From Candidatus Saccharimonas sp. (GTDB lineage Bacteria > Patescibacteriota > Saccharimonadia > Saccharimonadales > Saccharimonadaceae), in NCBI GenBank assembly GCA_015256915.3, contig CP076101.2, positions 30,001-62,000 of the forward strand: 32,000 nt of DNA. The letters run 5' to 3'. The notes under the pieces were generated by a model, which searched no databases, had not been told where the DNA came from, and was given only the letters and a program-made list of their open reading frames with translations. Below are positions 1 through 17,857 of this stretch, piece by piece. The position numbers were made by a program, and so were the translations under genes. How positions within the stretch are numbered: the first letter of the stretch is position 1; the number at the start of each line of letters is the position of its first letter.

Positions 1-117
1 AAATTAAAATTATCTAACATTTTCCACCCTTCCGAAAAAATAATCTTGATTATGCTTTAATTCTATGATACAATATAATTAATAAAAAGTAAAGTCAATT
101 AAATATAAAGGTGGGTT

Positions 118-579
118 ATGGAAATTGATATGAATCAAACAAGTAAAATGCCAGTTAGCGATGATCCAGAACTCGCTAAGATTCTTTCTGGTGTTAGCGG
201 TTCTTCAGATGATTCTGATGACAATCAAAGTACTGATGAACTCCAATATGAAGATTTAAACCAAGTTGAGGTTCCAGTTGCTGAAGAAGCTCAACCGATT
301 GTTGAACAAACTCAGCCAACTGTAATGCCAAGTTTTGGTGGTTTAGATTTAGATACGATTAAAGGCTATGCTCTTGAAGATTTACGACCATTAGTTAATA
401 AATTAACCGTTTCTAATGAAGAAAAATTTGATATTTATCTTTTACTTCTCCGTTCAAGTGATGATGATACCTTAATTGAACCGGCTTACAATGCTGCTCG
501 AATGATTGAAGATGAAGCAAAGCGTGCAAATGCACTTCTCAATGTGATTAAAGAAATTGATTACTTTAAATCAAAATAA
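118..579 (+). CDS. hypothetical acidic (D/E/S-rich) protein, 153 aa
   Basis: Complete ORF. AAGGTGGG Shine-Dalgarno-like element lies just upstream of ATG 118. Stem-loop plus T-run follows at 588-625. No motif recognised. Confidence 0.6.
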   Translation: MEIDMNQTSKMPVSDDPELAKILSGVSGSSDDSDDNQSTDELQYEDLNQVEVPVAEEAQPIVEQTQPTVMPSFGGLDLDTIKGYALEDLRPLVNKLTVSNEEKFDIYLLLLRSSDDDTLIEPAYNAARMIEDEAKRANALLNVIKEIDYFKSK

Positions 580-587
580 TTATAAAG

Positions 588-625
588 ACTGCGATAGATT
601 TTAAACTCTCGCAGTTTTTTATTTT
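588..625 (+). terminator. rho-independent terminator
   Basis: Stem ACTGCGA (588-594) pairs with TCGCAGT (609-615). It is followed by TTTTTTATTTT. Confidence 0.7.
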
Positions 626-670
626 ATAAAATTTTAAATTGCACTCAGTTTTTTTATAAAATTATCTGTA

Positions 671-712
671 AATTAATAAAAATAGGCCCTAAGTTCAGAG
701 CCTATTTTGCTT
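671..712. terminator. bidirectional stem-loop terminator between convergent genes
   Basis: 9-bp stem AAAATAGGC (679-687) pairs with GCCTATTTT (700-708). T-runs follow on both strands. Confidence 0.65.
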
Positions 713-720
713 TTTCAAAA

Positions 721-3132
721 TTAGATTTTTTTCGAATTTCTCTTCAATTTTTTAGCGAAGAATGCAATTATTGGTGTGAAAATTACAGTAACCAAACCAA
801 TTAAAACTAATATAGTATTGCTGTCTTGTTGGTTTTGCTTTTCGCGTAAATATCCAGTTTCTGGAGAATTTAAATGTTGCTTTGCAATTTCCTCATCACG
901 TTTTTTGATAGCTTCTGAAAGTTTGTCTACTTCAATTTGAGCTTCTTTTTGCTTGATAGAATTTTTAATTTCTTGCAATTTTTCGCTTAACTCTTGGCGT
1001 TTTTTCTCATCTTTAACTTTCGAAATTAAATTCTCAATATTTTCAATATCAACAGCTGGAAGCTCATTTTTCTTCGTTTTGTTATCTTCAATGATTTTTT
1101 CAATTTCTTTTAGCTTATCTTCAGATGATTTTTGGCGCTCACTTTCTGCTTTTTTAGCTTTTTCAATAGCCGATTTCAAATCTTCTTCTGCTTTTTTAAT
1201 TTCTTCAAAAGTTGGATTATCTTCTTTTTGAACTTCTTTAGCTTTATCTGCTTCAGTTTTAACTTCATCTTTCAGCCATTTTTGTGAATCTTCGAAATCT
1301 TTAATTTGTGAATTTAAGGCTGTTTTATCAGCTCGTAAACCGTTCAAAGCGCTTTCAAGTTCATTAATTGCTTCTAATATTTCACTCTCTGAAGCAAGAT
1401 CTTCGGTTGAATTTTTTATCGCCTCGGCAGTTTTAAGTTGGCTTGAAATATTTAAGTTTGACGCTGCATCTACAACTTCTTGCAACTGTGCTAAAGTTTC
1501 CTTAGAAAAATTATTAAGATTTTTTAAATTAGCAATTTTGTCTAAAGTTTGCTCCAACTTTTTGGTATTTTTATTATAGCGTTCAGCAATTTTCTCTAGC
1601 TCTTTAAGATTTGCTTGTTTTGCTACAGGGTCAAGAATTTTATCATTTTCATTCATGACATCTTTAAAATCGGTTATATATTCAATCATTTTCTTTAATT
1701 CGTTAATTGCATTTGAAATATCAGTTTTGCGCTCATTTTCTAGAGCTACGATTTCGGCAATTTTATTGTTTAAAGAATCTGCTGCGTTTTTAACGTCATC
1801 GTTGGTTATTCCTAAAGGCTGCGTTTCAGTACGCTTAACCTCAGTTAATAAATTAGCAGGGATTGCATTTTTAATATAATCTGGCTGTTTTTCGAAATTT
1901 TCAAGAGCTTTTTTAGCTGGCTCACGAGAAGCGAAAGCAGTTAAAAGCCTAAATTGAGCGGTCGTGGTATTTCCGTATTTATTTGTAGCCTTAACTGTAA
2001 CCAAATAGTCACCATTTATTTGATTTTCTTTATTGCTGAATACTTCTTCGGCATCAGTTGTGAAAGAAGTAATATCTGATGTTGGACTACTTGTTGTAAA
2101 GAAATTTCCACCAGCTTGCGGATTATAACTCTTCTTGAAAGATTCTATTATAGTATCATTAATTGTAGAATTATCCTGTCTTGGTTTTTCCCAAACTAAC
2201 GGAGTATCTTCTTTTAATGAAATCCTTTTGCCATTAAAGTTGAAATATATATCTGGTTTTTCTTCTGAATTTACGTCAATATCTTCAACTGAAGCAAAGC
2301 TTATACTATAATCCAAGTTAAACTTATTTCCATTTGGCAGAGTGTCATTTTTTTCTGGAATATTAAAACTGTGATTACCTTTTAAGATTGGTTTAATAAT
2401 TTTAACATATCCACCATCTTGTTTCGGATTTCCGTTTATATCAACATTAATGAAGTTTTCATTTTCTTCGATCGGCATAATTGTGCCATCAAAATTGATA
2501 AAAGGGTTCTTAAAAATTCTCTGACCTTTTTGGACTTTAATTGCTATATTTGATCGAATTCCCCAAACTCCAGCATATGGAAGCTCGCTAAGGAATGAAA
2601 AATCAGTAACATGAGTATCATGAATCCAAATTAATCTAACTTGTTTCCAATTTTTTGCAGCCGACATATCTGAAATGTTTAATGAACTTAAGTAAGCTGT
2701 TCTAACTTTAGTTAGTGTAGAAGCTGCAGAGATATCCTTTAAGCTACTTATTCCGGCAATATGAATTGTCTCAAGATTTGTAAAATATTGAATTCCTTCA
2801 AGATTTTCAAAATTGCGATAAGGAATATCTGGCCAAAATGTAGTCATTTTTTTAGCCTCACCAACTGTAATTGGGCTATCGAGATTTCGAGAAGTTTCAG
2901 TTTTCATTAAAACTGAATTTAATGCACGCTTAAAATTCGCATCTGTAAATTTAATTTCATAACTATCTGGAGCGTTGCTTGGATCAACGGGGTTCACCGC
3001 TGAAGTATAAGCTGATACTTTCGAAAAAATATTTTGTTTGTTGATAATTTGTGTTCCATAGTACCCTCCACCGAGTACTAGAACTGCTACCGTCATTGCG
3101 GGTAATAAGATTCTATTATTTTTTACTTTCAT
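721..3132 (-). CDS. cell-surface protein: N-terminal signal/anchor, internalin-like leucine-rich repeats, beta-rich middle, long coiled-coil stalk, C-terminal sortase-type sorting signal
   Basis: 803-aa ORF. N-terminal hydrophobic LLPAMTVAVLVLGGG. About 22-residue LRR periodicity (LEGIQYFTNLETIHIAGISSLKDISAASTLTKVRTAYLSSLNISDMSAA, nt ~2565-2850). K/E-rich heptad region (nt ~855-1935). C-terminus is SPETG (853-867), then a hydrophobic helix, then KKLKRNSKKI. Confidence 0.8.
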   Translation of the reverse strand: MKVKNNRILLPAMTVAVLVLGGGYYGTQIINKQNIFSKVSAYTSAVNPVDPSNAPDSYEIKFTDANFKRALNSVLMKTETSRNLDSPITVGEAKKMTTFWPDIPYRNFENLEGIQYFTNLETIHIAGISSLKDISAASTLTKVRTAYLSSLNISDMSAAKNWKQVRLIWIHDTHVTDFSFLSELPYAGVWGIRSNIAIKVQKGQRIFKNPFINFDGTIMPIEENENFINVDINGNPKQDGGYVKIIKPILKGNHSFNIPEKNDTLPNGNKFNLDYSISFASVEDIDVNSEEKPDIYFNFNGKRISLKEDTPLVWEKPRQDNSTINDTIIESFKKSYNPQAGGNFFTTSSPTSDITSFTTDAEEVFSNKENQINGDYLVTVKATNKYGNTTTAQFRLLTAFASREPAKKALENFEKQPDYIKNAIPANLLTEVKRTETQPLGITNDDVKNAADSLNNKIAEIVALENERKTDISNAINELKKMIEYITDFKDVMNENDKILDPVAKQANLKELEKIAERYNKNTKKLEQTLDKIANLKNLNNFSKETLAQLQEVVDAASNLNISSQLKTAEAIKNSTEDLASESEILEAINELESALNGLRADKTALNSQIKDFEDSQKWLKDEVKTEADKAKEVQKEDNPTFEEIKKAEEDLKSAIEKAKKAESERQKSSEDKLKEIEKIIEDNKTKKNELPAVDIENIENLISKVKDEKKRQELSEKLQEIKNSIKQKEAQIEVDKLSEAIKKRDEEIAKQHLNSPETGYLREKQNQQDSNTILVLIGLVTVIFTPIIAFFAKKLKRNSKKI

Positions 3133-3240
3133 TTAATCTTTCCTTGAATATATTTATGCTTATTCTATTTTATTAAATAATTGCAAAAAAATCAATATTA
3201 TGCTAAAATTAAAAATACTTTTCAAAAAGGGGTGAATATA

Positions 3241-3561
3241 ATGAAGAAGGTACCTTTAAGGTTTGGTAAAAACGATTTGTTTTTCTGGATTGCTGCCACT
3301 CTTTGCACTGAAAGAGTTACAGAGCCAGAGAAATCTTATCTACTTAGTGATAGCTCTAATTTTGAGGAATTGATTCTTGAAATTATTGTCAATGAGCCTA
3401 CTGGAGTTTTTCGTAGAAAGAGTTTCTTTTTTGAATTAAATGATTATAATCTTAAAGAAGCTCGAATTGCGTTTCGTAGTGGTGAAATTGCGAATTGGTA
3501 TATCCGTAAAATTACGGTTTCAGACGCTCAATTAAACTCACAAATTAACCAAACCCTTTAA
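3241..3561 (+). CDS. hypothetical protein, 106 aa
   Basis: The ORF track begins at 3181 with TTG (a non-ATG start). I prefer ATG 3241, which is preceded by AAAGGGGTGA. No motif recognised. Confidence 0.55.
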   Translation: MKKVPLRFGKNDLFFWIAATLCTERVTEPEKSYLLSDSSNFEELILEIIVNEPTGVFRRKSFFFELNDYNLKEARIAFRSGEIANWYIRKITVSDAQLNSQINQTL

Positions 3562-3590
3562 TAAAAATCAAAAGATTGATTTTTATTTTT

Positions 3591-3626
3591 AAAAACTAAA
3601 ATCGCCCAGATATGAGCGATTTTTTG
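3591..3626. terminator. bidirectional stem-loop terminator
   Basis: Stem AATCGC (3600-3605) pairs with GCGATT (3616-3621), followed by TTTTT. An A-run upstream gives a U-run for the minus-strand murE transcript. Confidence 0.6.
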
Positions 3627-4937
3627 CTATTTTTTGAAGATTTCTTTTGTGATTTTTTGCACAATCTCTGTGTCATTCCAAGGTGTTTTTTTGCCGTCAA
3701 TTACGCGGTAAACTTCATGCCCTAAACCTGTAATTAACACAATATCTCCCTTTCCTGCAATTTGTAAAGCTTTTCGAATTGCTTCTTCGCGATCTGGAAT
3801 TTCTTGAATATTTGCTGGCAATTTTTCACCTTTTTTCGAAATTCCCGCAATAATTTCTTCACGAATTTGCTTAGCGTCTTCGGTGTAATTTTCTTCATCG
3901 GTAATAATAATTCGGTTGGCTAAATCTTGAGCGATTTTTCCCATAATTGGGCGTTTTTCACGATCACGGTCACCGCAAGCACCAAAAACCAAAATCGTGC
4001 GCGATTTAGTGATTTTTTTTGAAGCTTTAAGAAGTTTTTCAAGCGCGTCTGGCGTATGGGCGTAATCTACAACCACGTCAAAAGGTAAATTCGAAACAGC
4101 ATATTCAAACCTTCCTGAAACTCCTTCAAGATTAGCGATTCCCTCTTGAATATCTTCTAGCGAGATTCCCAAAAGATAAGCGCCGGCCGCCGCCGCAGTC
4201 ATGTTGTAAACATTAAATTCGCCTGGTAGATTTGTGGCGATTTCAAGTGTAACATTATTATCAATTCGCAAATTAGCTTCGCTTCCCTTTTTGTAAAGTT
4301 TGAAATTTTCAATTTTGACTTCTGCAGAATCACTTTCGCCATAAGTTATTTTTTGCTCGCCAGCCTCAAATTTATTGAAAAATTCGAAATAAGCATCATC
4401 AGTATTTAAAACAATAAATCGTGGTTGCATTTCGAAAAGTTTTGCTTTAGCGTTAGCGTAGTTTTCCATTGTTTTATGGTAATCAAGATGATCTTGCGTA
4501 AGATTGGTCATAATTGCCATCTCAATAGGAACTCCAGCAAATTTGTATTGATCAAGCGCGTGCGAAGTTGCCTCAATTAACGCAAATTCAACACCAGCTT
4601 TTTTTGCATCAGAGAAAAATTTTTGTAATTTCGAAACTGTTGCGGTTGTAGAATTGGTGTCATTCACTGTTTGAATACCCGCAATCTCAATATTTGCGGT
4701 TGAAAACATCGCAGTTTTATACCCAGCTTCTTTTAAGATTTCATTAAGAAAATTAACAGTGGTGGTTTTACCGTTCGTACCTGTTACAGCAATCACTCGC
4801 AAGTCGCGCGCTGGGTTGCCATAACGCGTGGCGATAACTTTTGCACGAGATTTTCGATAAGTTTTTTCAAGCCCAGAAATTGCCGTTTTTGGCAGAATTT
4901 TGCGAGCTGTTTTTGCTAAATTGTTCTTAATGCTCAT
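3627..4937 (-). CDS. murE: Mur ligase, MurE-type (UDP-MurNAc-tripeptide synthetase) with a very short N-terminal region
   Basis: P-loop VTGTNGKTTT. DYAHTPDALEKLL and FGACGDRDREKRPIMG are typical MurE C-terminal signatures. Start moved to ATG 4937 (MSIKNN...) because a TATAAT box lies 6 nt upstream. The track's 39-aa extension is hydrophobic junk that overlaps the promoter. Confidence 0.85.
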   Translation of the reverse strand: MSIKNNLAKTARKILPKTAISGLEKTYRKSRAKVIATRYGNPARDLRVIAVTGTNGKTTTVNFLNEILKEAGYKTAMFSTANIEIAGIQTVNDTNSTTATVSKLQKFFSDAKKAGVEFALIEATSHALDQYKFAGVPIEMAIMTNLTQDHLDYHKTMENYANAKAKLFEMQPRFIVLNTDDAYFEFFNKFEAGEQKITYGESDSAEVKIENFKLYKKGSEANLRIDNNVTLEIATNLPGEFNVYNMTAAAAGAYLLGISLEDIQEGIANLEGVSGRFEYAVSNLPFDVVVDYAHTPDALEKLLKASKKITKSRTILVFGACGDRDREKRPIMGKIAQDLANRIIITDEENYTEDAKQIREEIIAGISKKGEKLPANIQEIPDREEAIRKALQIAGKGDIVLITGLGHEVYRVIDGKKTPWNDTEIVQKITKEIFKK

Positions 4938-4943
4938 AGTTAA

Positions 4944-4972
4944 ATTATAGCACATCTCGCCCAGCAGTCCAA
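4944..4972 (-). promoter_or_regulatory. sigma70-type promoter TTGGAC-N17-TGcTATAAT, 6 nt before the murE ATG (leaderless layout)
   Basis: On the minus strand, -35 TTGGAC is at 4967-4972 and -10 TATAAT is at 4944-4949, with a TG at the extended -10 position. Confidence 0.55.
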
Positions 4973-5442
4973 ATCTGCATTCTATCATTAGAGCCAGTAT
5001 CTGAATCGCAAAACTCAGAGATATAATATCGCCAAAAAGAACGATAAACAACATACAGCCTAAAGTCAGACTGTATTTCTGAAAATGAGGTGTTTTGGAA
5101 GATTTTTAATCTCAATAGTTTAGAAAAATGGTTGGTGGGGTAAAATTGGGGGTATGGTTAATGAAGAATCTTGGGTTCTTAATTTTGTAAGTTTGAAATT
5201 TTCTTTACTGTGTTTGCAGTATAGATTTCGAGGGCTTGGTTATTGTTAGTTTAATATTAGTTAAAGACTAGCAAAGATATAGAAATAAACAGTAAGTCGC
5301 CTGACTATTTGTAATGTGTTTAGCAATTTGTCGGGTAGAGTTGCCCATTCTTAAAACACCTGAAGCGAATGACGGTGCGAATAAGCATAATTTTTATACA
5401 TTCCCAGACTTGCTACGAAATTTATCCCTACATCTTAGTTGA

Positions 5443-8400
5443 TCAACCATTTCGTTTGCTATAAACCCTATAAAATGAGTCCTCCTCATGATAAGAACTT
5501 ATCTTGCCCTCGCTTTTTAGATACTCTAAAATCCCTTCATTTACTTCAGTTATTGTTAATTTAGGGTTTTTACTTTTACTAATATTGCTCATCAAATTAT
5601 TGTATATTTCTAAAAGCCGAACTTTTTGAAGTTGTTCATTTAATTCTAAGGCAGTAAAATTCGATAGCTGTTTACTTAATAAGATTTGACGACTCTCGAT
5701 ATCTATATCGTCTATAGAAATTATCTTTTTTAATAGCGAAGTGTCTACCGTAATTTCACCACTTAGAATATCATCAATATGGGTTTGCGAAATATTTTCA
5801 ATAATTTTCTGAACCTCCTTACTGAAGTCAGAATAATTAGACACAATATATTCTAAATCATCCTCATCGAAACGATTTTTTAAAATATGACCTTGTAGTT
5901 TAGCACTGTACGCTTTATTTTGGATGCTGATATTAGTTTTAAAGCAATCCACTATAGAAATCGCATCTTCGATAGTAATATTCTCATCTAATACCTGAAG
6001 AGCCTCTTCTTCATTATAAACATTTATATCTGTAAATTCCTGAATATAACTATCTATATACTCTAAAATATAAATATTTACTTGATTTGGGTATCTTTCT
6101 CGCAAACTTTTCAGTACATCAACACTAAATTCAGAAGATACAGATCTAGTTTTTATAAGAATATTAATCTTACTTTCATCAATATCTTTATCGGGGAGTG
6201 ATGTAAGCTCCCGCCCGATTACCGATAATATATTTCTATAATGTTCATCCTTCAACTTATTGCACATAGCCGTTTTCCTAAAGAACAGTCTTTGTTGCTC
6301 TTCTGAGTATTTATCAAAAATTGTTTTTTCAAAACGTATGTTCAACTTCGAATTAACAAAATCGAGAAGCAATTCGTTCCATTCCTCGTATTCATTGAAT
6401 GAATCCATTAAATTTTGAGTATTGCAGATAATTTTATTGAACTTAAACGCGGCGTCAATCATCGGCATTGTTTCAAGGAGTGTTACGTTAAGTATTTCAT
6501 CTGAAAGACATTTCATATAGTCAATTCGGGTCTCTTCAACTACCTCTTTATTGTTTAATATCTCATAGACATCAGGTAACTTATCATTAATCGAATTGCC
6601 AGAAAACCGAATAATTTGTTTAACATAATCTTCAATATTTTCTTGGATATACTCGCTCAGTTCTTTAAATAACTTAGTTATACTAATTGGTTGATTTTTA
6701 ACCTGTTCCTCAGTAATTGAAGAATCTAGATAACTTATAAGATTAGTAATATTTGCCATATTTATTGCATACAGATTGTGATCATACACATATTGGCTCA
6801 TTGATCCATGAGACCCATTGAAGTCAAAATCAGTAATTTTAACATTCAACTTTGACAAATTAGCTTGAATTTGCGAGTTATCTACCTTTAATGGGTCGCT
6901 AAAATTATCAAAACTTTCCTGAATTGATTTCCAATTCTCCTCAATAAAAATTACTAAAACATCTACTAGTTTAGAGTCAAGAGTATAGAGACTCAAGTTG
7001 GTCAGCGATAACAACAAGTTAGTAATATAGACTTTATCCCTATTCAAAATATTATCTGATAACAGTAAAATTCTCAGTGTTTTCTTATCAGACTTCAAAA
7101 GTTCTACAATTAAAGAAATTCGATAATCTATTTCAATTGTTTCATTTTGTAAGTATCTATTTAAAAATTCATAACGTTCCTCTACTATATACGAATTAAT
7201 ACGTTCTTGAATTTTACCTTCAGTCAAAGTATATTTCAATAAATCATAGTTCAGGATTGAAGCGTGATTAAAATCTGAATCATCCAATCGGTCGTAAACC
7301 TCAGAAATTTCAGTTAGCGAATAATCTTCTTCTAAAATATTATCTCCCTGAACTGCAATAAGAAATTCTTTATCTTCCTTTTTTAGTGTATTCGGATAAA
7401 AATAAGTAATATAATCCGAATATCCCTTATCTATATAACCGTTCTGAATCAAGAAAAAAATCATAGAAAGCTTTTCATCAGATTTTAGATATCCAAATTC
7501 TGCTTGAGAGCATATATCGTCAAAACTGGAACGCTCTAAGAGATGTGCAATTTTTTCTGAAGAAACCTCAGATAATTCTTTACGAAATGAAATGAGTTCG
7601 TCATTTAGTGAATTGATTTTTTCCCTGTCTTCTAGTTTTTTTAGTCGATTTTGAAACTCTTCATCGTTCGGAAAAATATTATCAAAGTTCTCTATTTGAT
7701 CATAGTTATAGCTGTAACCAGATGATGTGGACTTAATTTCAACGCCTTCCTTGAGTAATTCCCTAATAAACTCAATTCTATTTGGGAACTCACTCTCGAG
7801 CTTTCCATCAACCTTAATCGCCTCTCTACCTTCTGGCACTTTTAAAAATATAGAATAAAGCTCTAATTTATTTCTTGAAAATTCTTGTTCAGCCTCCATA
7901 ATTCTACTTTTAAGCGTTGATATTTCTTTATTTAATTTTTCTCTTTTGTGTTTTTTTAGACTAATCTCCTCTTGTAGGAGTTTGTACACTAAACCCGAAT
8001 TCATTTGTAAATATGAAAAGTCTTTTGGAAATATATTCTTATAGACAATCATTGCAAATAATTTTTCATCAACGAGCTGAAGTTTATCAGCCTTCTCCGT
8101 GTCTGATAATGCTGAACGATAAAAGGCAAATTCATTACAAATATTATAAGCAAGACGCATTTCATCCACGTAAATAGAGATTTTTTGAAGAAATTTTTTA
8201 TCTAAGGTGTTTTCGAGATGCATATCTTTCAAAATATCCGTAAAACGCTCTCCAGCATTAGATGAAGTAATTACAGGTATTATAGGAATAACAAAATCAA
8301 AAAACTTCGTACGTTCTCGAGAGATAAACATATCATCTTTGATTAAGTAAATAAATAATAGTTTTTCGCCATTTTTCTTTTTACCATTTACAAGCGTATT

Positions 8401-9237
8401 GATTTCTCGTAGCTTCTCAAAGATTAGATTGGTTTCAAACCTATCAATATCCTCAAAAATAATAACATTAGTTTTACAATTTTCAAACAAATATAATACA
8501 TCATCTAAATACTTGTCAAAATATGAGATATTCGAATTTTGGAAAACTTCTATTTGACCCGAAATTCCCGCACCTTTGAAAGATATATTTCGAAGTAGTT
8601 TTTGATGAAACTGAAGCTTAACTAATTGATATATGATTTTATATAAGATAAATACAGTCACAGCATAAGCCACTAATCGGCTAATTGCTCCAATTACAGT
8701 CACAGCATAAGCCACTAATCGGCTAATTGCTCCAATTCTAGGTAATGGAGGGATAGTAGTAACTAAAGTTGAAGCGATAATATTATAATTAACTAAGAAT
8801 AGTATCATGAAAAGAAGGCCAGCTAACAACGCAGTCCAATATCCAATATTGGTATTGCTTGGATTTTGTTTTGATTTAAAAATAGTCATTGGAATATCAT
8901 TTGGGTCAATTCTATGAAGTAATTGATTTATGACTTTTCCCTCTAGGATATTAACCTGTTCATTGGTAGTTATCGTATTAAACTTATCATCACTCTCGTT
9001 CTCACTTTCATCTTTATTCTCTCGAGTAAAATGAGAAAGCGAGAGATGAATAGGATTAAAAGTCTCATCCTTCGTCTTATATGTTTCAATAAAACTACTT
9101 TTCCCTGCGCCATAATTTCCCGATATAGCAACATTCGTTATATCTTTTTCAGATAAAACAAAACGCATCGCCTTTATCTGTGATTCATCAATTTCTATAT
9201 CATTTTTTGGCGTTAATTTATTAAAAATGTAGGTCAT
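5443..9237 (-). CDS. KAP-family / YobI-like / Tmn-like P-loop NTPase with transmembrane helices inserted in the NTPase domain, plus a ~900-aa uncharacterised helical C-terminal region
   Basis: 1264-aa ORF. Walker A GNYGAGKSS (nt 9097-9120). Walker B-like VIIFEDIDRF about 220 aa later. Hydrophobic helices lie between them (YWTALLAGLLFMILFLV, AISRLVAYAVTV x2, VFILYKIIYQLV). GGAGA lies 5 nt before the ATG. TGA stop. Confidence 0.85.
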   Translation of the reverse strand: MTYIFNKLTPKNDIEIDESQIKAMRFVLSEKDITNVAISGNYGAGKSSFIETYKTKDETFNPIHLSLSHFTRENKDESENESDDKFNTITTNEQVNILEGKVINQLLHRIDPNDIPMTIFKSKQNPSNTNIGYWTALLAGLLFMILFLVNYNIIASTLVTTIPPLPRIGAISRLVAYAVTVIGAISRLVAYAVTVFILYKIIYQLVKLQFHQKLLRNISFKGAGISGQIEVFQNSNISYFDKYLDDVLYLFENCKTNVIIFEDIDRFETNLIFEKLREINTLVNGKKKNGEKLLFIYLIKDDMFISRERTKFFDFVIPIIPVITSSNAGERFTDILKDMHLENTLDKKFLQKISIYVDEMRLAYNICNEFAFYRSALSDTEKADKLQLVDEKLFAMIVYKNIFPKDFSYLQMNSGLVYKLLQEEISLKKHKREKLNKEISTLKSRIMEAEQEFSRNKLELYSIFLKVPEGREAIKVDGKLESEFPNRIEFIRELLKEGVEIKSTSSGYSYNYDQIENFDNIFPNDEEFQNRLKKLEDREKINSLNDELISFRKELSEVSSEKIAHLLERSSFDDICSQAEFGYLKSDEKLSMIFFLIQNGYIDKGYSDYITYFYPNTLKKEDKEFLIAVQGDNILEEDYSLTEISEVYDRLDDSDFNHASILNYDLLKYTLTEGKIQERINSYIVEERYEFLNRYLQNETIEIDYRISLIVELLKSDKKTLRILLLSDNILNRDKVYITNLLLSLTNLSLYTLDSKLVDVLVIFIEENWKSIQESFDNFSDPLKVDNSQIQANLSKLNVKITDFDFNGSHGSMSQYVYDHNLYAINMANITNLISYLDSSITEEQVKNQPISITKLFKELSEYIQENIEDYVKQIIRFSGNSINDKLPDVYEILNNKEVVEETRIDYMKCLSDEILNVTLLETMPMIDAAFKFNKIICNTQNLMDSFNEYEEWNELLLDFVNSKLNIRFEKTIFDKYSEEQQRLFFRKTAMCNKLKDEHYRNILSVIGRELTSLPDKDIDESKINILIKTRSVSSEFSVDVLKSLRERYPNQVNIYILEYIDSYIQEFTDINVYNEEEALQVLDENITIEDAISIVDCFKTNISIQNKAYSAKLQGHILKNRFDEDDLEYIVSNYSDFSKEVQKIIENISQTHIDDILSGEITVDTSLLKKIISIDDIDIESRQILLSKQLSNFTALELNEQLQKVRLLEIYNNLMSNISKSKNPKLTITEVNEGILEYLKSEGKISSYHEEDSFYRVYSKRNG
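8654..8737. repeat. perfect 42-bp tandem duplication (2 copies) inside the NTPase gene
   Basis: 8654-8695 and 8696-8737 are identical (ACAGTCACAGCATAAGCCACTAATCGGCTAATTGCTCCAATT). This encodes IGAISRLVAYAVTV twice, in frame. Confidence 0.95.
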
Positions 9238-9389
9238 AACATTCTCCGTATCCGCACTTATACCCGATACAATACAACCAATTCTCCATCTATATTCCTC
9301 TCAACTTTTTCACCGAAGGAGCTAATAGAATTCATTATCTATGGATATAACTAATGAATAGAACTCTCTTCAGATTTATGTTTAACTAT

Positions 9390-9398
9390 ATTATAGCA
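9390..9398 (-). promoter_or_regulatory. candidate extended -10 promoter TGcTATAAT for the NTPase gene (leader of about 150 nt)
   Basis: The minus strand reads TGCTATAAT. There is no good -35. It is the only strong -10 match between tRNA-Leu and the ATG at 9237. Confidence 0.35.
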
Positions 9399-9670
9399 TA
9401 GTTCAGGGGATTTTTTGAGACAAGAAAACCCCACATAAGGCGGACTAAGACCAGCTACTAAGGAACTGTTCATTAAAAATCTGAAACCGTGCAGTTGACA
9501 TTCCAAATATGCGAGCTAAGCCAATACTGTTCGACAAATCGAACTATATTATCACTTTATCGGCGAAATCTTAAAGGAGTAATCTTAAAAAGCTCGTTCC
9601 ATAATTTAACAGATTAGACTGCTCCGGAAGGGGTGAACCTTATATCACTTTTTCAATATCATAGCAAATT

Positions 9671-9701
9671 ACAAAATAAAAACAGCTTCTCTCGAAGTCT
9701 G
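9671..9701 (-). terminator. terminator after tRNA-Leu
   Basis: On the minus strand, stem CAGaCTTC with loop GAGA pairs with GAAGCTG (one bulged A in the 5' arm). TTTTTATTTT follows. Confidence 0.55.
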
Positions 9702-9719
9702 CTTTTAAAAAATAATTTC

Positions 9720-9804
9720 TGGTACACGAGAAAGGACTTGAACCTTCACGCCAATTGGCACTAGTTCCTAAGACTAGCGTGTCTACCAATTCCACCACTC
9801 GTGC
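9720..9804 (-). tRNA. tRNA-Leu (anticodon TAG), class II, CCA encoded
   Basis: Hand-folded cloverleaf. Acceptor GCACGAG/CTCGTGT. Anticodon stem CTAGT/ACTAG with loop CTTAGGA. Long variable arm GCCAATTGGC. T-arm GAAGG-TTCAAGT-CCTTT. 85 nt. Confidence 0.9.
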
Positions 9805-9818
9805 AAAATTACTTTACT

Positions 9819-9847
9819 ATTTTAACTGATATTTTTCGAAAAGTCAA
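9819..9847 (-). promoter_or_regulatory. promoter TTGACT-N17-TAAAAT upstream of tRNA-Leu
   Basis: Minus strand -35 is at 9842-9847 and -10 at 9819-9824. The tRNA 5' end lies 14 nt downstream of the -10. Confidence 0.5.
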
Positions 9848-9872
9848 GGATTTTTTCAGAAAATAGATTTTT

Positions 9873-9960
9873 TGGCGGAGAGAACAGGATTCGAACCTGC
9901 GAGAGCTTGCACTCAACACGCGTTCCAGGCGTGCGCCTTAAACCACTCGGCCATCTCTCC
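9873..9960 (-). tRNA. tRNA-Ser (anticodon GGA), class II, CCA encoded
   Basis: Acceptor GGAGAGA/TCTCTCC with discriminator G. Anticodon stem CACGC/GCGTG with loop CTGGAAC. Long variable arm. T-arm GCAGG-TTCGAAT-CCTGT. 88 nt. Confidence 0.9.
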
Positions 9961-9968
9961 ATAAAAAT

Positions 9969-9997
9969 ATTTTACTTTATTTTTTCGAAATTTTCAA
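9969..9997 (-). promoter_or_regulatory. promoter TTGAAA-N17-TAAAAT upstream of tRNA-Ser(GGA)
   Basis: Minus strand -35 is at 9992-9997 and -10 at 9969-9974, 8 nt before the tRNA 5' end. It is divergent from the 10022 gene promoter. Confidence 0.5.
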
Positions 9998-10005
9998 TTG
10001 AATCA

Positions 10006-10014
10006 TGATATAAT
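10006..10014 (+). promoter_or_regulatory. extended -10 promoter TGaTATAAT, 7 nt before ATG 10022 (leaderless layout)
   Basis: TG at 10006-10007 and TATAAT at 10009-10014. Confidence 0.5.
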
Positions 10015-10021
10015 TTGAAAT

Positions 10022-10450
10022 ATGGAAGTTAAAAAATATAAGCCAGAAGATATTTACCCAACACCGCAAGAAAAACCAAAAGAAAACCAAGAAAAATCGC
10101 GAGAAGCCCAAAACAATGAATTTATTCTTGAAGAATATAAAGTTATTCGAAAAGGCAAAAGCGAAAATTTTATGCCAATTCAAATTGCCGCAATATTGGG
10201 AATTTTAAGCCTATCTCCAACTTCTTCGCCAGTTCCAATCCTTAACTATGGTTTTAGCTTGCTTTCAGTTGTAGCTATTAGCTATTCACTTAAAACTGCA
10301 AATAAATTCGAAATTGAAACTGGGCGAAAATCAAAAGTTAAAATCTGGGCAGAAATTCTATTAACAATTCAAATTTGCATTTTTATAATGTACTTGATTT
10401 CTGGTATATTTTCTGCCGGAAGAATGTTGAACGGAATTAAATTATTTTAG
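10022..10450 (+). CDS. hypothetical membrane protein, 142 aa (charged N-terminus, about 3 TM helices)
   Basis: Complete ORF. Hydrophobic segments include IQIAAILGILSLSP, FSLLSVVAISY and ILLTIQICIFIMYLISGIF. Confidence 0.65.
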   Translation: MEVKKYKPEDIYPTPQEKPKENQEKSREAQNNEFILEEYKVIRKGKSENFMPIQIAAILGILSLSPTSSPVPILNYGFSLLSVVAISYSLKTANKFEIETGRKSKVKIWAEILLTIQICIFIMYLISGIFSAGRMLNGIKLF

Positions 10451-10521
10451 GATTACATTGTTTTTTAAAAATGTTTATGATAAAATTTAATTGAATTTTA
10501 ATCTAAAAGAGGTATTAATAT

Positions 10522-10785
10522 ATGAAAAAATTCACAAAACCACAAAAACTAAAAGATATTATCATCATTTCATTAGTTGTTTTTAATTTTATCGTGAGCA
10601 TTTTTGCAATCTTTTTGGGAGTTCAATTTTACATTCAAAAAGATGCCCTATCGCATTATTTGGTGCAAGACCTAAATACTGACCAAATAAATTACGAATG
10701 CCACAAAGCACCCTCAGACCAGTGTACGAAAGAATATAACCGAATGGTTGATATTAAGAGACATATCCTTTCTGAAAGATTTTAA
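10522..10785 (+). CDS. hypothetical small membrane-anchored protein, 87 aa
   Basis: AAGAGG Shine-Dalgarno lies upstream of the ATG. There is a single N-terminal TM helix (IIIISLVVFNFIVSIFAIFLGV). Confidence 0.6.
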   Translation: MKKFTKPQKLKDIIIISLVVFNFIVSIFAIFLGVQFYIQKDALSHYLVQDLNTDQINYECHKAPSDQCTKEYNRMVDIKRHILSERF

Positions 10786-10895
10786 TTTTTAAGTTATTTC
10801 TAAGCTACCAAATTATGGTGGCTTTTATTTTTTTTCAAAATTTTAAGATTTTTCTAAGCTGAATGTGTTAAAATATAAATAGAAAAGAGGTAAAT

Positions 10896-12200
10896 ATGAA
10901 AACGAAACTTGTAATCTTTGGCTTAACTGGTGATTTAGGGCGCCGCAAACTTTTGCCTGCGCTCGATTCCCTGCTTGAAAAAAATGAGATTTCACCAGAT
11001 GAACTTGAAGTTGTTGGCGTTTCTCGGCGGCAAATTCAGCCTTTCGAAATTCTTGAAAGTTCGCTCGGGCTTTCGCGCGCAGAAAATTCTAAACTTTTGC
11101 AAATTTTAAGTTTTTTCGAAATGAATTTGGCAGATGAAACAGAATACAAAAAGCTTAAAAAATACCTTCAAGATGAAAATGAAGAATCACAAATTTTACT
11201 GTATCTTTCAGTTCCGCCAGCAAGTGCTGCACAGATTTCAACATTAGCCGGAAAAGCTGGTTTAAATGGTAAAAATGTTAAAATTCTTTTCGAAAAACCT
11301 TTCGGAATTGATCTAAAATCAGCGCAAGAATTTATTTCTCGAACGGCGGAATTTTTTAGTGAAAAGCATATTTTTCGAATCGACCATTATTTAGCAAAAG
11401 AAATGGCACAAAATTTACTAATTTTGCGGCACAAAAACGCATTATTTTCGCAAATTTGGAGCGGAAAATCGATTTCGAAAGTGCAAATTATCGCCAGCGA
11501 ACAGATCGGAATCGAAGGTCGTGGCACTTTTTATGAACAAAGTGGCGCTTTGCGTGATTTTATTCAAAGTCATTTAATTCAGATTTTGGCATTATTTTTG
11601 GCGGATTTTCCAAAGAGCTGGAACGATTTGCCTGAAGCTCGCTTTAAAGCATTAGAACAGATTGAAAAATTACAAAATCCTAAAGAAAATGCAATTCGTG
11701 GTCAATATCAAACCTATCGTGGAGAAGTTGAAAATCCAAAATCTTGCGTTGAAACTTTTGCTAAAATTCGACTATTTTCGAAAGATGAAAATTGGAAAAA
11801 TGTGCCTTTCGAACTAATTTCTGGTAAAAACTTGAGTGAAAAACGCAGCGAAATTCGTATTCATTTGCGCAAAACCGAAGAAAATCAAGCCAATTTAATT
11901 CAAATTTCGCTTGATGATTCGGCGAGTGTAAAAATTGAACTTGCAACGAAAATTCCAGGTTTAAATCGTCGCACAGAAATTCGAAATTTGAGTTTTTCTT
12001 ATGATGAAAATGCTCAGCCTGCCGAAGCTTATGAAAAAGTTTTGGCTGAAGCGATTCGGAATGAAAAAGCGTTTTTTGCTGAGAGCGATGAAATTTTGCG
12101 TGCGTGGGAAATTCTTCAGCCAGCTTTGGATTTTTGGCAAAATTCGAATGAAGAAACTTTGCGATTTTATAAAAAAGGAACAGATTGGAGCGATATTTAA
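10896..12200 (+). CDS. zwf: glucose-6-phosphate 1-dehydrogenase
   Basis: N-terminal dinucleotide motif FGLTGDLGRRKLLPAL. Active-site signature RIDHYLAKE. AAGAGG Shine-Dalgarno upstream. Confidence 0.9.
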   Translation: MKTKLVIFGLTGDLGRRKLLPALDSLLEKNEISPDELEVVGVSRRQIQPFEILESSLGLSRAENSKLLQILSFFEMNLADETEYKKLKKYLQDENEESQILLYLSVPPASAAQISTLAGKAGLNGKNVKILFEKPFGIDLKSAQEFISRTAEFFSEKHIFRIDHYLAKEMAQNLLILRHKNALFSQIWSGKSISKVQIIASEQIGIEGRGTFYEQSGALRDFIQSHLIQILALFLADFPKSWNDLPEARFKALEQIEKLQNPKENAIRGQYQTYRGEVENPKSCVETFAKIRLFSKDENWKNVPFELISGKNLSEKRSEIRIHLRKTEENQANLIQISLDDSASVKIELATKIPGLNRRTEIRNLSFSYDENAQPAEAYEKVLAEAIRNEKAFFAESDEILRAWEILQPALDFWQNSNEETLRFYKKGTDWSDI

Positions 12201-12601
12201 TGCAAGAAAAATCAATTTTTACACGAATTATTGAGGGAGAAATCCCCTGCCACAAGATTTATGAAGACGAAAAAGTTTTCGCAATGCTTGACATTGAGCC
12301 GCTTTCGAACGGCCATGTTTTGGTTATTCCAAAAAAACAAGTTGATTTGCTTTGGGATTTAGAGAAAGATGATTATGATTATCTGTGGCAAATTACTAAA
12401 AAAATTGCCCAGAAAATTCAAGCTGAAATGAAGCCGATCCGTGTGGGTGTTATCGTTGAAGGTTTCGGCGTGCCACATGCGCATATTCACCTTGTTCCGC
12501 TTTATGATAAAAATGTTTTGCAGCTCCACCACGGCTACCCCGCCGAAACTGCTTCTGAAGAATTAACGAAAATTACACAAAAAATTGCTTTCGAAAAATA
12601 A
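12200..12601 (+). CDS. HIT (histidine triad) family hydrolase
   Basis: HAHIHLVP triad (HxHxHxx). The N-terminus IFTRIIEGEIPCHKIYEDE is typical of HinT-like proteins. The start overlaps the zwf stop (TAATG), with GGAG upstream. Confidence 0.85.
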   Translation: MQEKSIFTRIIEGEIPCHKIYEDEKVFAMLDIEPLSNGHVLVIPKKQVDLLWDLEKDDYDYLWQITKKIAQKIQAEMKPIRVGVIVEGFGVPHAHIHLVPLYDKNVLQLHHGYPAETASEELTKITQKIAFEK

Positions 12602-12628
12602 AAAAGCCCCACGATTTTGTGGGGTTTT
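12601..12628. terminator. bidirectional rho-independent terminator
   Basis: AAAAA, then GCCCCAC, loop GATTTT, then GTGGGGT, then TTT. It sits between convergent genes. Confidence 0.75.
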
Positions 12629-12643
12629 GAAGTGAATCTGCTT

Positions 12644-12940
12644 TTAGAGAATGATGATATTGTGTCTTTCACAAAAATCAATTGTGTCTCTAACATGAGC
12701 TTCGAAATATTTGTCGTGCTTGGAAGCGCAGTTGATTGAGTAAGGGCCTGTTTTACCCTTAATTAGGTAATTATCAATGTGGCGTTCCTCGCGATCGAGG
12801 AATGCTTTACGGTCATCTTCTGATGCATCCTTAAAGTCGAGTCCTTCGACAGGTTTTGGCTCTTTATGGTCACATGAACTGAGCATGAGCAAAACTGATC
12901 CGTCTTCTTGAGTCTCAAACTTTTTTAAAACTTTAACCAT
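12644..12940 (-). CDS. hypothetical Cys/His-containing small protein, 98 aa (possibly 151 aa if started at TTG 13099)
   Basis: ATG 12940 is preceded by AGGAGA with 6-nt spacing. The same frame stays open for 53 more codons, up to a TTG that lies next to the promoter. Confidence 0.55.
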   Translation of the reverse strand: MVKVLKKFETQEDGSVLLMLSSCDHKEPKPVEGLDFKDASEDDRKAFLDREERHIDNYLIKGKTGPYSINCASKHDKYFEAHVRDTIDFCERHNIIIL

Positions 12941-13107
12941 ACTGGTTCTCCTGCGTTTAAAGTCCGCCTGACTATAGATTTTTTCGAAACTTTCAGCTTC
13001 GAAAGCTAAGTTTAACTTTTTAAACTCAATTTTCGAAACTGAAAAATCGGCAAAACTAGTCAGATTCACACTTTTGAAATGTCCTCTCACTCCGCGCAAG
13101 TAACTTA

Positions 13108-13136
13108 ATTATATCACAAAAAAATAAAAAAGTCAA
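13108..13136 (-). promoter_or_regulatory. promoter TTGACT-N17-TGaTATAAT
   Basis: Minus strand -35 is at 13131-13136 and -10 at 13108-13113. Confidence 0.55.
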
Positions 13137-13149
13137 GAGTTATAACATA

Positions 13150-13181
13150 AAAAAGAAAAAGCCTTGCTTTTTTGCAAGGCT
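13150..13181 (-). terminator. rho-independent terminator of the 13200-13541 gene
   Basis: 8-bp stem AGCCTTGC/GCAAGGCT with a 6-nt loop. On the minus strand it is followed by TTTTCTTTTTT. Confidence 0.75.
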
Positions 13182-13199
13182 TGAATTGATAGAACTGAG

Positions 13200-13541
13200 C
13201 TATTCAAATATGCACAATGATTGGCAGCCAATAATTTGGCCTTTGTCATTTCTCACCGTTTTACCAGTGATAAATAAATCTCTAGTGGTTCGACCACTTG
13301 ATTTTGCAGCTTTCGCGGTTATAACGCTGACGATGTAAAATACGCGATCACTGGGTTCCGGCAAACCAACTGGCTCACCGAAAGTCATTTTAATGATTGG
13401 AATACCTTCAACCGTTCTAATCTCAACTTCATCTTGAGTAGCTCTCGCTTCTCCATCAGATGGAAAGGTTTTAACTACTTTTCCATCTTTATCGATAATG
13501 TTGATTTCGTGTGGAGTCAAATTATTAATAATAATTTCCAT
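13200..13541 (-). CDS. hypothetical protein, 113 aa
   Basis: Complete ORF with an AGAGAGG Shine-Dalgarno 8 nt upstream, its own promoter and its own terminator. The N-terminal NLTPHEINI motif looks familiar from small conserved proteins, but I cannot name a family. Confidence 0.7.
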   Translation of the reverse strand: MEIIINNLTPHEINIIDKDGKVVKTFPSDGEARATQDEVEIRTVEGIPIIKMTFGEPVGLPEPSDRVFYIVSVITAKAAKSSGRTTRDLFITGKTVRNDKGQIIGCQSLCIFE

Positions 13542-13584
13542 TTTATCTACCTCTCTTTTCGAGATCTTTCTTTATTTTACCAAG

Positions 13585-13645
13585 TTTTACTACTTAGCAA
13601 GAAATCTTTAAAGGATCTTTAAAAACTTATTGCTAAGTAGTAAAA
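13585..13645. repeat. 16-bp perfect inverted repeat with a 29-nt spacer containing two ATCTTTAAA direct repeats
   Basis: TTTTACTACTTAGCAA (13585-13600) pairs with TTGCTAAGTAGTAAAA (13630-13645). The spacer is GAAATCTTTAAAGGATCTTTAAAAACTTA. No U-run follows on either strand. Confidence 0.9.
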
Positions 13646-13723
13646 AGATAATAAAATGGATAACATCTTTTAGCTCAATTCTGATAATGTTCGGTTGTGT
13701 TTTTAATAATCACAACTGTTTTA

Positions 13724-13752
13724 ATTATAGCATAATTACATTGAAAAGTCAA
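13724..13752 (-). promoter_or_regulatory. consensus promoter TTGACT-N17-TGcTATAAT, giving a leader of about 175 nt for the 13541 gene
   Basis: Minus strand -35 is at 13747-13752 and -10 at 13724-13729. Confidence 0.6.
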
Positions 13753-13773
13753 GTCCGAAAAAAGTTAAAAAAA

Positions 13774-13782
13774 TGTTAAAAT
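13774..13782 (+). promoter_or_regulatory. extended -10 promoter TGtTAAAAT, 6 nt before the rlmH ATG (leaderless layout)
   Basis: TG at 13774-13775 and TAAAAT at 13777-13782. Confidence 0.45.
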
Positions 13783-13788
13783 AAGAAT

Positions 13789-14241
13789 ATGAAAATTATT
13801 GCGATTGGTAAAAAACATGAAAAATGGGTTGCAAGCGGAATTGAAATGTTCGAAAAACGATTAAAAAAACCGTTTGAAGTGGAGTGGCAAATTTTAGCGC
13901 ATTCGAATTTTGCCGAAGAAAAAGCGCGCGAAGAAGAAACCCAGCGAATTTTAGCAAAAATTAAACCGAGCGATTTTGTGATTTTACTGGATGAGCGTGG
14001 TAAAAATATTTCTAGCCCAGAGCTCGCCAAAATGCTTTCGAACGGATTTGTGAATTCGCAGAATTTTGTGATTATTATTGGTGGAGCTTTTGGTGTGTCT
14101 GAAGAACTTAGAAAGCGTGCAAATTTTGTTTGGAGCCTTTCGAAATTAGTTTTTCCGCATCAAATTGTGCGCTTAATTTTGGTTGAACAAGTTTATCGTG
14201 CGCAAGAAATTTCTTCTGGCGGAAAATATCACCATGAATAA
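13789..14241 (+). CDS. rlmH: 23S rRNA (pseudouridine1915-N3)-methyltransferase, SPOUT family
   Basis: Length of about 150 aa. IIIGGAFGVSEELRKRA...LSKLVFPHQIVRLILVEQVYRA is the RlmH C-terminal knot region. Confidence 0.85.
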   Translation: MKIIAIGKKHEKWVASGIEMFEKRLKKPFEVEWQILAHSNFAEEKAREEETQRILAKIKPSDFVILLDERGKNISSPELAKMLSNGFVNSQNFVIIIGGAFGVSEELRKRANFVWSLSKLVFPHQIVRLILVEQVYRAQEISSGGKYHHE

Positions 14242-14306
14242 ATTATTTTTTGTGGAAAAAGCTGTGGAAACTCCTTGAACATTCGAAAAAACTCGCCTGA
14301 AAGTAT

Positions 14307-14335
14307 TTGCGAAAAATGGTGAAAAAATATATAAT
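14307..14335 (+). promoter_or_regulatory. promoter TTGCGA-N17-TATAAT, 9 nt before ATG 14345
   Basis: -35 is at 14307-14312 and -10 at 14330-14335. Confidence 0.55.
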
Positions 14336-14344
14336 AGAATTACT

Positions 14345-16378: not shown

Positions 16379-16391
16379 GAATAGACAAAAT

Positions 16392-16419
16392 AAAAAAGTC
16401 GCTTAGAAGGCGACTTTTT
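16392..16419. terminator. bidirectional rho-independent terminator
   Basis: Stem AAGTCGC/GCGACTT with a 7-nt loop. An A-run lies upstream and TTTT downstream. Confidence 0.75.
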
Positions 16420-16430
16420 AGTTTCGAAAA

Positions 16431-16898: not shown

Positions 16899-16907
16899 AA
16901 TGGCTAT

Positions 16908-16936
16908 ATTATAGCAAAAAAAGTGATTTTTGTCAA
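16908..16936 (-). promoter_or_regulatory. consensus promoter TTGACA-N17-TGcTATAAT, 9 nt before ATG 16898
   Basis: Minus strand -35 is at 16931-16936 and -10 at 16908-16913. Confidence 0.65.
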
Positions 16937-16941
16937 TACTC

Positions 16942-16970
16942 TTGTGTTTTTTGGCAAAATTTGATAAAAT
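16942..16970 (+). promoter_or_regulatory. promoter TTGTGT-N17-TGaTAAAAT for tRNA-Ser(GCU)
   Basis: -10 is at 16965-16970, 9 nt before the tRNA 5' end. Confidence 0.5.
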
Positions 16971-16979
16971 AGAAATATT

Positions 16980-17795: not shown

Positions 17796-17807
17796 TATAG
17801 AGTTATT

Positions 17808-17846: not shown

Positions 17847-17857
17847 AGTGGGCAGAA

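Follow-up and report, generated by a model that had tools for sequence, protein, structure and literature searches.

What does a solitary gene for a large membrane protein do in a reduced bacterial genome, and how did it get there? We address this question for a 32,000-nucleotide stretch of Candidatus Saccharimonas sp. DNA (contig CP076101.2, positions 30,001 to 62,000), referred to throughout as the window. Here, an open reading frame (ORF) of 1264 amino acids (aa), which we call tmn, lies between the Mur-ligase gene murE (3627-5054, minus strand) on one side and two tRNA genes on the other. The host is one species of gut or oral Candidatus Saccharimonas (TM7/Patescibacteria) with a genome of ~0.64 Mb. 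The protein is recorded as QWB90995.1 ('MAG: Candidatus Saccharimonas sp.') on a 637,739-bp contig, which bears out the reduced genome that a first-pass annotation had proposed.

We find that tmn most probably encodes a full-length member of the Tmn/YobI family of single-gene membrane NTPase defense systems. The gene lies on an islet that interrupts the murE promoter within its -10 box. It would be of Streptococcus-like origin, and its product would work by the Tmn mechanism known from homologs. An anti-phage function of the window copy in this host, argued by analogy, is uncertain.

Family membership and protein architecture

tmn is a stand-alone gene. Its non-coding spacers measure 388 bp (5055-5442) and 482 bp (9238-9719), close to the gaps of about 390 and 480 bp first read from the sequence. 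Among 29 tabulated window ORFs it is alone in ending with TGA, as the first-pass annotation had remarked. The features of the gene and its product are as follows.

5443..9237, minus strand: tmn/yobI-family gene, 1264 aa, TGA stop (ORF and translation, Pfam, PADLOC, hhalign)
9244..9247, minus strand: GGAG ribosome-binding site, 6 nt ahead of the tmn ATG (read off the sequence)
9094..9120, minus strand: Walker A motif GNYGAGKSS, residues 40-48
8752..8853, minus strand: transmembrane (TM) helix 1, residues ~129-162, Kyte-Doolittle maximum 2.28; helix 128-161 in the AlphaFold2 (AF2) model
8620..8736, minus strand: TM helix 2 (TM2), lengthened by a duplication, residues ~168-206 by hydropathy; single helix 169-212 in AF2
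8437..8466, minus strand: Walker B motif VIIFEDIDRF, residues 258-267
7558..7992, minus strand: proximal arm, a coiled coil (residues 416-451 and 526-560) bearing a small alpha/beta domain (~457-520), from AF2
5578..7548, minus strand: distal arm, a long all-helical alpha-solenoid, residues ~564-1220, from AF2
5458..5562, minus strand: small C-terminal strand-helix-strand-strand domain, residues ~1226-1260, from DSSP of the AF2 model
5053..5076, minus strand: terminator-like hairpin downstream of tmn, supplied by the islet

Family profiles place the protein with YobI and Tmn. The Pfam model YobI-ATPase (PF20693) matches residues 22-418 over profile positions 3-363 of 363, with 355.4 bits (cut-off 27) and E=6.3e-106. 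The PADLOC model for Tmn (PDLC02220) matches residues 5-1030 against profile positions 26-1076 of 1273 (E=5.5e-72). The first-pass annotation had spoken of a KAP/YobI/Tmn-like protein; its YobI/Tmn part stands, and its KAP part falls, as Pfam KAP_NTPase (PF07693) found no match even at E<=1. The similarity extends to plasmid-borne proteins. An E. coli IncI plasmid protein (WP_240089368.1, 1271 aa, 'anti-phage transmembrane ATPase') shares 27% identity over 689 aa by BLASTP (E=8e-56). hhalign aligns it with a probability of 100% (E=1.9e-52) over 974 columns, query 5-1017 against 23-1071. A tblastn search of PLSDB with the N-terminal 446 aa retrieved 629 plasmids, mainly conjugative plasmids of Escherichia, in which the gene carries the same label.

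Tmn was reportedly described as an anti-phage system by Gao and colleagues in 2020. It is a YobI-family transmembrane NTPase with two TM helices within its P-loop domain (Wu et al. 2026, bioRxiv, PMC13001434). It assembles as a decameric membrane hub. Its proximal arm is a coiled coil with a variable alpha/beta domain, and its distal arm is an ARM/HEAT-like solenoid. Activation by the T2 protein RIIB leads to ATP turnover, Mg2+ export and plasmolysis, the last of which is sometimes reversible (PMC13001434).

The window protein has the same parts in the same order. The Walker A motif is present as first annotated, although the coordinates then given (9097-9120) were one codon short. Walker B follows 218 aa later, against an earlier estimate of about 220. 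A 19-residue Kyte-Doolittle scan of the whole protein found only two hydrophobic segments, residues 129-162 and 168-206. The stretch between the Walker motifs contains both, where the first-pass annotation had noted several hydrophobic helices, and AF2 places helices 128-161 and 169-212 over them. Across 63 homologs, G40, G45, K46 and S48 of Walker A and E262, D263 and R266 of the Walker B region are invariant.

An AF2 model of residues 421-1264, built on the 63-sequence alignment, reached a mean pLDDT (predicted local distance difference test score) of 89.3. In this model, a long helix runs outward and a second helix runs back, with a small strand-containing domain between them (residues ~424-560), followed by ~45 stacked helices at residues ~564-1220. 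Foldseek against the PDB gave weak matches (E>=1e-3) of the C-terminal part to karyopherins, CRM1, Pds5, CAND1 and beta-catenin, all HEAT/ARM solenoids. In the model of the N-terminal part (pLDDT 74.8), helices 128-161 and 169-212 project from a Rossmann-type core. Its PDB neighbors are ORC/Cdc6, proteasomal Rpt, NSF and RdrA (AAA+/ORC/NSF/RdrA folds), which agrees with the NSF similarity reported for Tmn (PMC13001434). A sequence search of the PDB with the window protein found no homologs. As modeled, the architecture is that of published Tmn.

Residues that matter for Tmn function are retained. The defense-essential residues of Tmn-25 (G66/K67, Y262, D276/R279, N297, K325/F326, R374, F506 and Y541/R544) correspond to conserved positions in the window protein (G45/K46, Y249, D263/R266, N284, K311/F312, R361, F490 and F528/R531), with the mapping routed via the E. 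coli homolog and an inferred numbering offset of +2. The window gene and Tmn are both single genes of ~1270 aa without an operon partner, both have two TM helices between Walker A and Walker B, and both have, for the window protein by modeling, a proximal arm made of a coiled coil tipped by an alpha/beta domain and a distal arm folded as an ARM/HEAT-like solenoid. Homology can be traced over ~1000 residues. They differ in that identity is only ~23-27%, the host of the window protein is a Patescibacterium, and the window allele has 14 extra aa in TM2. Bacillus subtilis YobI, the namesake of PF20693, belongs to the same Pfam family, which spans the N-terminal 400 residues.

By analogy with E. 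coli Tmn (PMC13001434), the two TM helices between the Walker motifs would anchor an oligomeric NTPase hub in the membrane, and the cytosolic proximal and distal arms would capture a phage early protein. This binding would trigger ATP hydrolysis and export of ions (Mg2+). The cytoplasm would then collapse (plasmolysis) and phage replication would stall. The earlier label of an abortive-infection module is thus only partly apt, because plasmolysis by characterized Tmn can be reversible; the broader reading as a putative defense module holds.

A foreign islet in the murE promoter

tmn is the cargo of a foreign islet that can be delimited by comparison with relatives. The features of the islet and its surroundings are as follows.

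~4953..9639, no strand: foreign islet, cargo-only, 4.69 kb, comprising tmn with 490 bp and 402 bp of non-coding flanks (from empty sites)
9640..9647, minus strand: direct repeat copy 1, TGATATAA, the ancestral murE extended -10, now facing into the islet
4944..4952, minus strand: direct repeat copy 2, TGCTATAAT, the present murE extended -10
4935..4937, minus strand: murE start codon, ancestral and probably true (ATGAGCATTAAG...), 6 nt past the -10 box and kept in all relatives
9720-9804, minus strand: tRNA-Leu(UAG)
9873-9960, minus strand: tRNA-Ser(gga)

The islet is missing from seven sister-species loci (L011-L016 and L035), whose MurE proteins are 89-98% identical at the aa level, and from 19 metagenomic contigs retrieved with an empty-site probe. 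In L016, L035 and these 19 contigs, the ancestral order is tRNA-Leu, a terminator hairpin, a promoter and ...AAAAAGTGATATAATTTAAGTATGAGCATTAAG... at the murE start. The empty sites in L016 and L035 join window position 9640 straight to 4952. We found no same-species genome without the islet; all 19 empty-site contigs belong to more distant relatives (murE 81-84% identical at the nucleotide level). By this comparison of the murE/tRNA-Leu junction, which the first-pass annotation had proposed, tmn is not a core gene.

The empty-site junctions, together with a flanking repeat, set the islet at ~4953-9639, with an imperfect 8-9-bp direct repeat on each side (consensus TG[A/C]TATAA(T)). On the tRNA side, the window reads ...GTGATATAA and then GG, with TGATATAA at 9647-9640. 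On the murE side, it reads ...GATG, then TGCTATAAT at 4952-4944, then TTAACTATGAGC, with the ATG at 4937. Compared with the empty sites, the islet is inserted inside the extended -10 box of the murE promoter. The first-pass annotation had the islet begin exactly at the 3' end of tRNA-Leu; the boundary instead lies 80 bp downstream of it, and 9640-9719 is ancestral DNA. It had also found no integrase, partner gene or repeat. The first two absences stand, and the repeat had been missed.

The insertion, through its flanking duplication, also rebuilt a murE promoter. An islet-derived -35-like TGGACT (4966-4971) serves the regenerated murE promoter, and the orphaned ancestral copy would now be directed toward tmn. 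On the comparative evidence, murE almost certainly starts at the ATG at 4937 and not at 5054, and the 475-aa MurE ORF from 5054 is an artefactual upstream extension. This start lies only 6 nt past the extended -10 (TGnTATAAT), which suggests that murE mRNA is leaderless in this clade.

No integrase was found on 4953-9639, and no gene besides tmn was identified there, the listed ORFs of 51-56 aa having been left unexamined. The search for terminal inverted repeats gave only a weak subterminal 14-nt match, which was equaled by 23 of 500 shuffles, and we claim no transposon signature. The islet flanks have no homology to the fetched Saccharibacteria loci, the rest of the window or the S. suis loci. 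An Rfam search of 4800-10100 at E<=1 returned the two tRNAs and chance matches only. The islet had no matches in a phage collection, and IMG/VR held only 4 distant protein relatives (21-28% identity) and no copies of the leader. These searches provide no evidence for a phage vector. A tRNA-targeted integrative island was considered and rejected, given the absence of a detected integrase, the 80 bp to the tRNA and the identity of the repeat with the murE -10 box.

In the closest sister species (L011-L015), a segment with tRNA-Leu, tRNA-Ser, a 142-aa ORF and an 87-aa ORF remnant is inverted relative to murE and G6PD. A link between this inversion and loss of the islet was also rejected, as those genomes retain an intact ancestral murE promoter. 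The shared 4953 boundary thus reflects only the insertion in the window itself.

Composition, relatives and donor

The islet lacks the sequence signature of its host. The 27.3 kb outside it contain 98 copies of TTCGAA, 10.6 times the number expected from mononucleotide composition. They also contain 46 copies of the palindromic 8-mer TTTCGAAA, which has TTCGAA as its core, or 48 times expectation. The 8-mer is found in each of the three reading frames as well as between genes. This enrichment is common to sister-species loci (L011, L012, L015, L016 and L035), and it was not seen in more distant Saccharibacteria, the Streptococcus loci or the E. coli plasmid. An uptake-signal-like motif and a methylation-related motif are both possibilities for its cause. 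The islet holds 3 TTCGAA where 16.8 are expected at the host rate (Poisson P ~5e-5, hand calculation) and no TTTCGAAA where 7.9 are expected (P ~4e-4, likewise). The scarcity of TTCGAA had been observed before, with a count of 2 in place of 3. The absence of this lineage-specific signature from the islet is strong independent evidence for recent arrival. The GC content of tmn (0.302, vs 0.359 in the rest of the window) is also foreign.

The closest relatives outside the host are in Bacillota. The protein falls in a 90% cluster of 87 members, whose representative P0001 is on its own present on 56 contigs; P0001, the 99% representative, stood in for the window allele in exact-protein look-ups. 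The next-best matches are all from Bacillota: S. suis (63%), S. parasuis (62%), many streptococci (42-47%) and Listeria, Enterococcus and Kurthia (~32%). In a rough neighbor-joining tree, the TM7 protein branches within a Streptococcus clade, where the S. suis and S. parasuis proteins together form its sister group.

The S. suis (P0002) and S. parasuis (P0003) proteins are named 'YobI family P-loop NTPase' or 'DNA-binding protein' at NCBI. They share 62-63% aa identity with the window protein over the full length and 68% nucleotide identity, with the nucleotide homology restricted to the coding sequence. Like tmn, they have a low GC content (0.302-0.305, vs 0.37-0.43 in their flanks). They stand alone in mutually unrelated neighborhoods, and no partner gene lies beside them or at the window locus. 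tmn is thus a self-contained single gene. The two homologs differ from it in length (1241 aa), in lacking the TM2 duplication, in phylum and, for the S. suis loci, in flanks without homology.

The upstream region of tmn also has a streptococcal counterpart.

9295..9428, minus strand: promoter and leader hairpin block, with an extended -10 (TGCTATAAT) at 9390-9398 and a hairpin at 9313-9373

This 134-bp block is 79% identical (E=4e-20) to a segment of plasmid pIKMIN-B501 (L124:6001-6135) from an S. salivarius strain isolated from the human mouth. On the plasmid, it sits directly upstream of a methyltransferase/DEAD-box helicase/TOPRIM operon. The two leaders share a long bipartite hairpin (z=-2.9 for tmn and z=-8.1 for the plasmid) with at least one compensatory pair change. 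Two instances of this hairpin were found, and it had no Rfam matches. With the extended -10, the GGAG ribosome-binding site and the terminator-like hairpin, the signals for expression are present in the sequence.

From phylogeny and composition, we infer that the donor was a Streptococcus-like member of Bacillota. The Bacillota relatives, the position in the tree, the GC content and the pIKMIN-B501 leader all indicate transfer from such a donor to TM7. The absence from seven loci and 19 contigs, the foreign composition and the lack of a partner gene also agree with the first-pass view of a horizontally acquired, stand-alone module of a putative defense family. That annotation had named in advance three findings that would count against it: no family match, no TM helices between the Walker motifs, and conservation at this locus in all relatives with native composition. 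The checks found a match, two such helices and an accessory gene of foreign composition, which supports a foreign Tmn/YobI-family gene.

A restriction-modification element beside tmn in sibling strains

In 7 of 10 same-species contigs, an extra 5.58-kb element lies between tRNA-Leu and tmn (L002:3934-9510). An 18-bp direct repeat flanks the element; its sequence is that of window 9710-9727, a site that is unoccupied in the window.

9710..9727, no strand: 18-bp attachment core aaataatttctggtacac, which takes in the 3' end of tRNA-Leu

The element encodes a large serine recombinase, an HTH_17 protein, a C5 DNA methyltransferase and a protein matched by the PADLOC model REase_II (E=3e-51). This gene content identifies it as a mobile type II restriction-modification (R-M) unit. 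The serine recombinase belongs to this separate element and not to the tmn islet. Judged from gene content, R-M and Tmn form a small putative defense cluster in the sibling strains that carry both. The TTCGAA density of the element is intermediate, which suggests that it has resided in the lineage longer than the tmn islet. The inversion in L011-L015 covers window 9710-10785, and one of its breakpoints, at 9710, is the edge of the serine-recombinase attachment core.

Allelic variation

tmn varies within its host species. Two features of the window allele correspond to sites that differ among strains.

8650..8733, minus strand: 42-bp tandem duplication, two copies 98% identical, encoding IGAISRLVAYAVTV twice in TM2 (repeat finding)
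7951..7957, minus strand: poly-A7 tract in codons 427-429, A8 or A6 in other strains, which gives frameshift alleles

The duplication makes TM2 of the window allele 14 aa longer than in every homolog, and AF2 renders it as one continuous 44-residue helix. It is polymorphic, being absent from the same-species 1250-aa alleles P0126 and P0127. The A7 tract is A8 in L113 and A6 in L114, and a G-to-T change creates E1090* in L115 and L116. Disrupted alleles sit on long contigs from independent samples (at least 16 contigs). Within the cluster, amino-acid polymorphisms are densest at the proximal-arm tip (residues 469-540).

The gene lies in a low-SNP (single-nucleotide polymorphism) tract at ~5100-10500, and the window has comparable tracts in other places. 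The tract is consistent with recent spread; we do not claim a sweep. Across window 1-19238, same-species SNP density (against L001, L004 and L009) is a mosaic, from 0-4 to >200 differences per 500 bp. This mosaic indicates frequent homologous recombination in the TM7 population.

Weighing the explanations

Several observations weigh against a working Tmn-family defense gene. The PADLOC Tmn profile leaves the last ~230 residues uncovered, and an NCBIfam scan of the window protein gave no matches. The Tmn mechanism was established in a gammaproteobacterial clade that is only ~27% identical to the window protein. The 14-aa TM2 duplication occurs in no Streptococcus homolog and might impair the protein. 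Three independent loss-of-function alleles (the A8 and A6 frameshifts and E1090*) circulate. Compared with ten P0001 contigs, the window tmn differs at 8 nonsynonymous and 1-2 synonymous sites (synonymous divergence, dS, ~0.001-0.003); because these contigs were selected for an identical protein sequence, the nonsynonymous count among them is biased to zero. In the neighboring murE, dS is 0.035-0.166 and omega (the nonsynonymous-to-synonymous rate ratio) is 0.07-0.11, and a core-like omega of 0.1 is rejected for tmn (P ~3e-4, hand binomial). The population data thus show that tmn is young in its TM7 host, is not under core-like purifying selection, and is inactivated in a minority of strains. 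This pattern fits a costly defense gene under fluctuating selection, and it also fits early decay. Accordingly, it is possible, though in our judgment unlikely, that tmn is a recently acquired Tmn-family passenger that selection does not maintain, neutral or costly and already decaying, with the TM2 duplication perhaps an in-frame lesion. The 8:1 ratio of nonsynonymous to synonymous differences from the commonest allele, the disrupted alleles in different samples and a duplication within a functional TM helix all favor decay. At dS ~0.001, moreover, an intact ORF is no proof yet of constraint. However, intact alleles dominate, and every catalytic and arm residue essential in Tmn-25 is kept. 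The polymorphism cluster at the arm tip is what diversifying selection acting on a sensor would be expected to produce, and the persistence of a gene of 3.8 kb in a 0.64-Mb genome, where the deletion bias is strong, points to some benefit. A high frequency of loss-of-function alleles is likewise typical of defense genes that are useful yet costly. A more elaborate reading, which we regard as improbable, makes tmn an on/off contingency defense gene of a minimal episymbiont. The A7 tract and the 42-bp TM2 repeat would be slippage-prone switches that turn a costly, plasmolysis-inducing defense on and off. The tRNA-Leu/murE junction would be a nascent defense island (Tmn and the mobile type II R-M element), and a Streptococcus-derived promoter/leader cassette, shared with another defense operon, would drive the gene.

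Other readings depart from defense or from the Tmn mechanism. A YobI-family NTPase with a membrane role outside defense, for instance in keeping Mg2+ or ion levels steady or in controlling a membrane complex where host and epibiont meet, would suit TM7 cells, which rely on membrane contact with their host, and Tmn itself moves Mg2+ (PMC13001434). Yet tmn is accessory, foreign and restricted to one species, and it has loss-of-function alleles. A defense-curated PADLOC model matches it over 1000 residues, and a mobile R-M element adjoins it in sibling strains. Such a role therefore seems very improbable, even if, to our knowledge, B. subtilis YobI has no established function. We give almost no weight to a KAP-family (PifA-like) abortive-infection NTPase that kills through membrane depolarization and nucleotide leakage. 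A TM insertion in the P-loop domain is said to have been named as the defining trait of KAP by Aravind and colleagues in 2004, and KAP NTPases, including PifA of the F plasmid, are likewise membrane-associated signaling P-loop NTPases that serve phage exclusion, so the general logic fits. But PF07693 is unmatched where YobI-ATPase scores 355 bits, and the TM topology differs. YobI is phylogenetically distinct from KAP, and Tmn has no reported depolarization or leakage, through which PifA works (PMC13001434). A Tmn/YobI-family defense gene of Streptococcus-like origin remains the probable explanation.

A variable gene near the islet

Near murE, an 803-aa ORF (721-3132, minus strand) had no Pfam or PADLOC matches. 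It evolves far faster than the genes around it, with an aa identity of 82-85% in the sister species, vs 95-98% for MurE, and strains carry versions of 790 to 807 aa. The product may be a surface protein.

Significance

The understanding of how Tmn works is unchanged by this locus, as the architecture and mechanism of the family have already been described (PMC13001434). What is noteworthy is the host phylum, the clean cross-phylum transfer, the allelic series, the hyper-abundance of TTTCGAAA and the leader hairpin shared with Streptococcus. The surveyed hosts of Tmn are Pseudomonadota, Bacillota, Bacteroidota and one archaeon, with no mention of Patescibacteria or Saccharibacteria (PMC13001434). 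The host range of Tmn would thus extend to the Candidate Phyla Radiation. The locus would be a clear and datable example of a complete single-gene immune system crossing phyla, from a Streptococcus-like donor to a Patescibacterium with a 0.64-Mb genome. It suggests that obligate epibionts may devote 0.6% of their genome to a phage sensor-effector. Finally, the natural allelic series (with and without the 14-aa TM2 duplication, arm-tip polymorphisms, two frameshifts and one nonsense allele) could be a guide for structure-function studies of Tmn.

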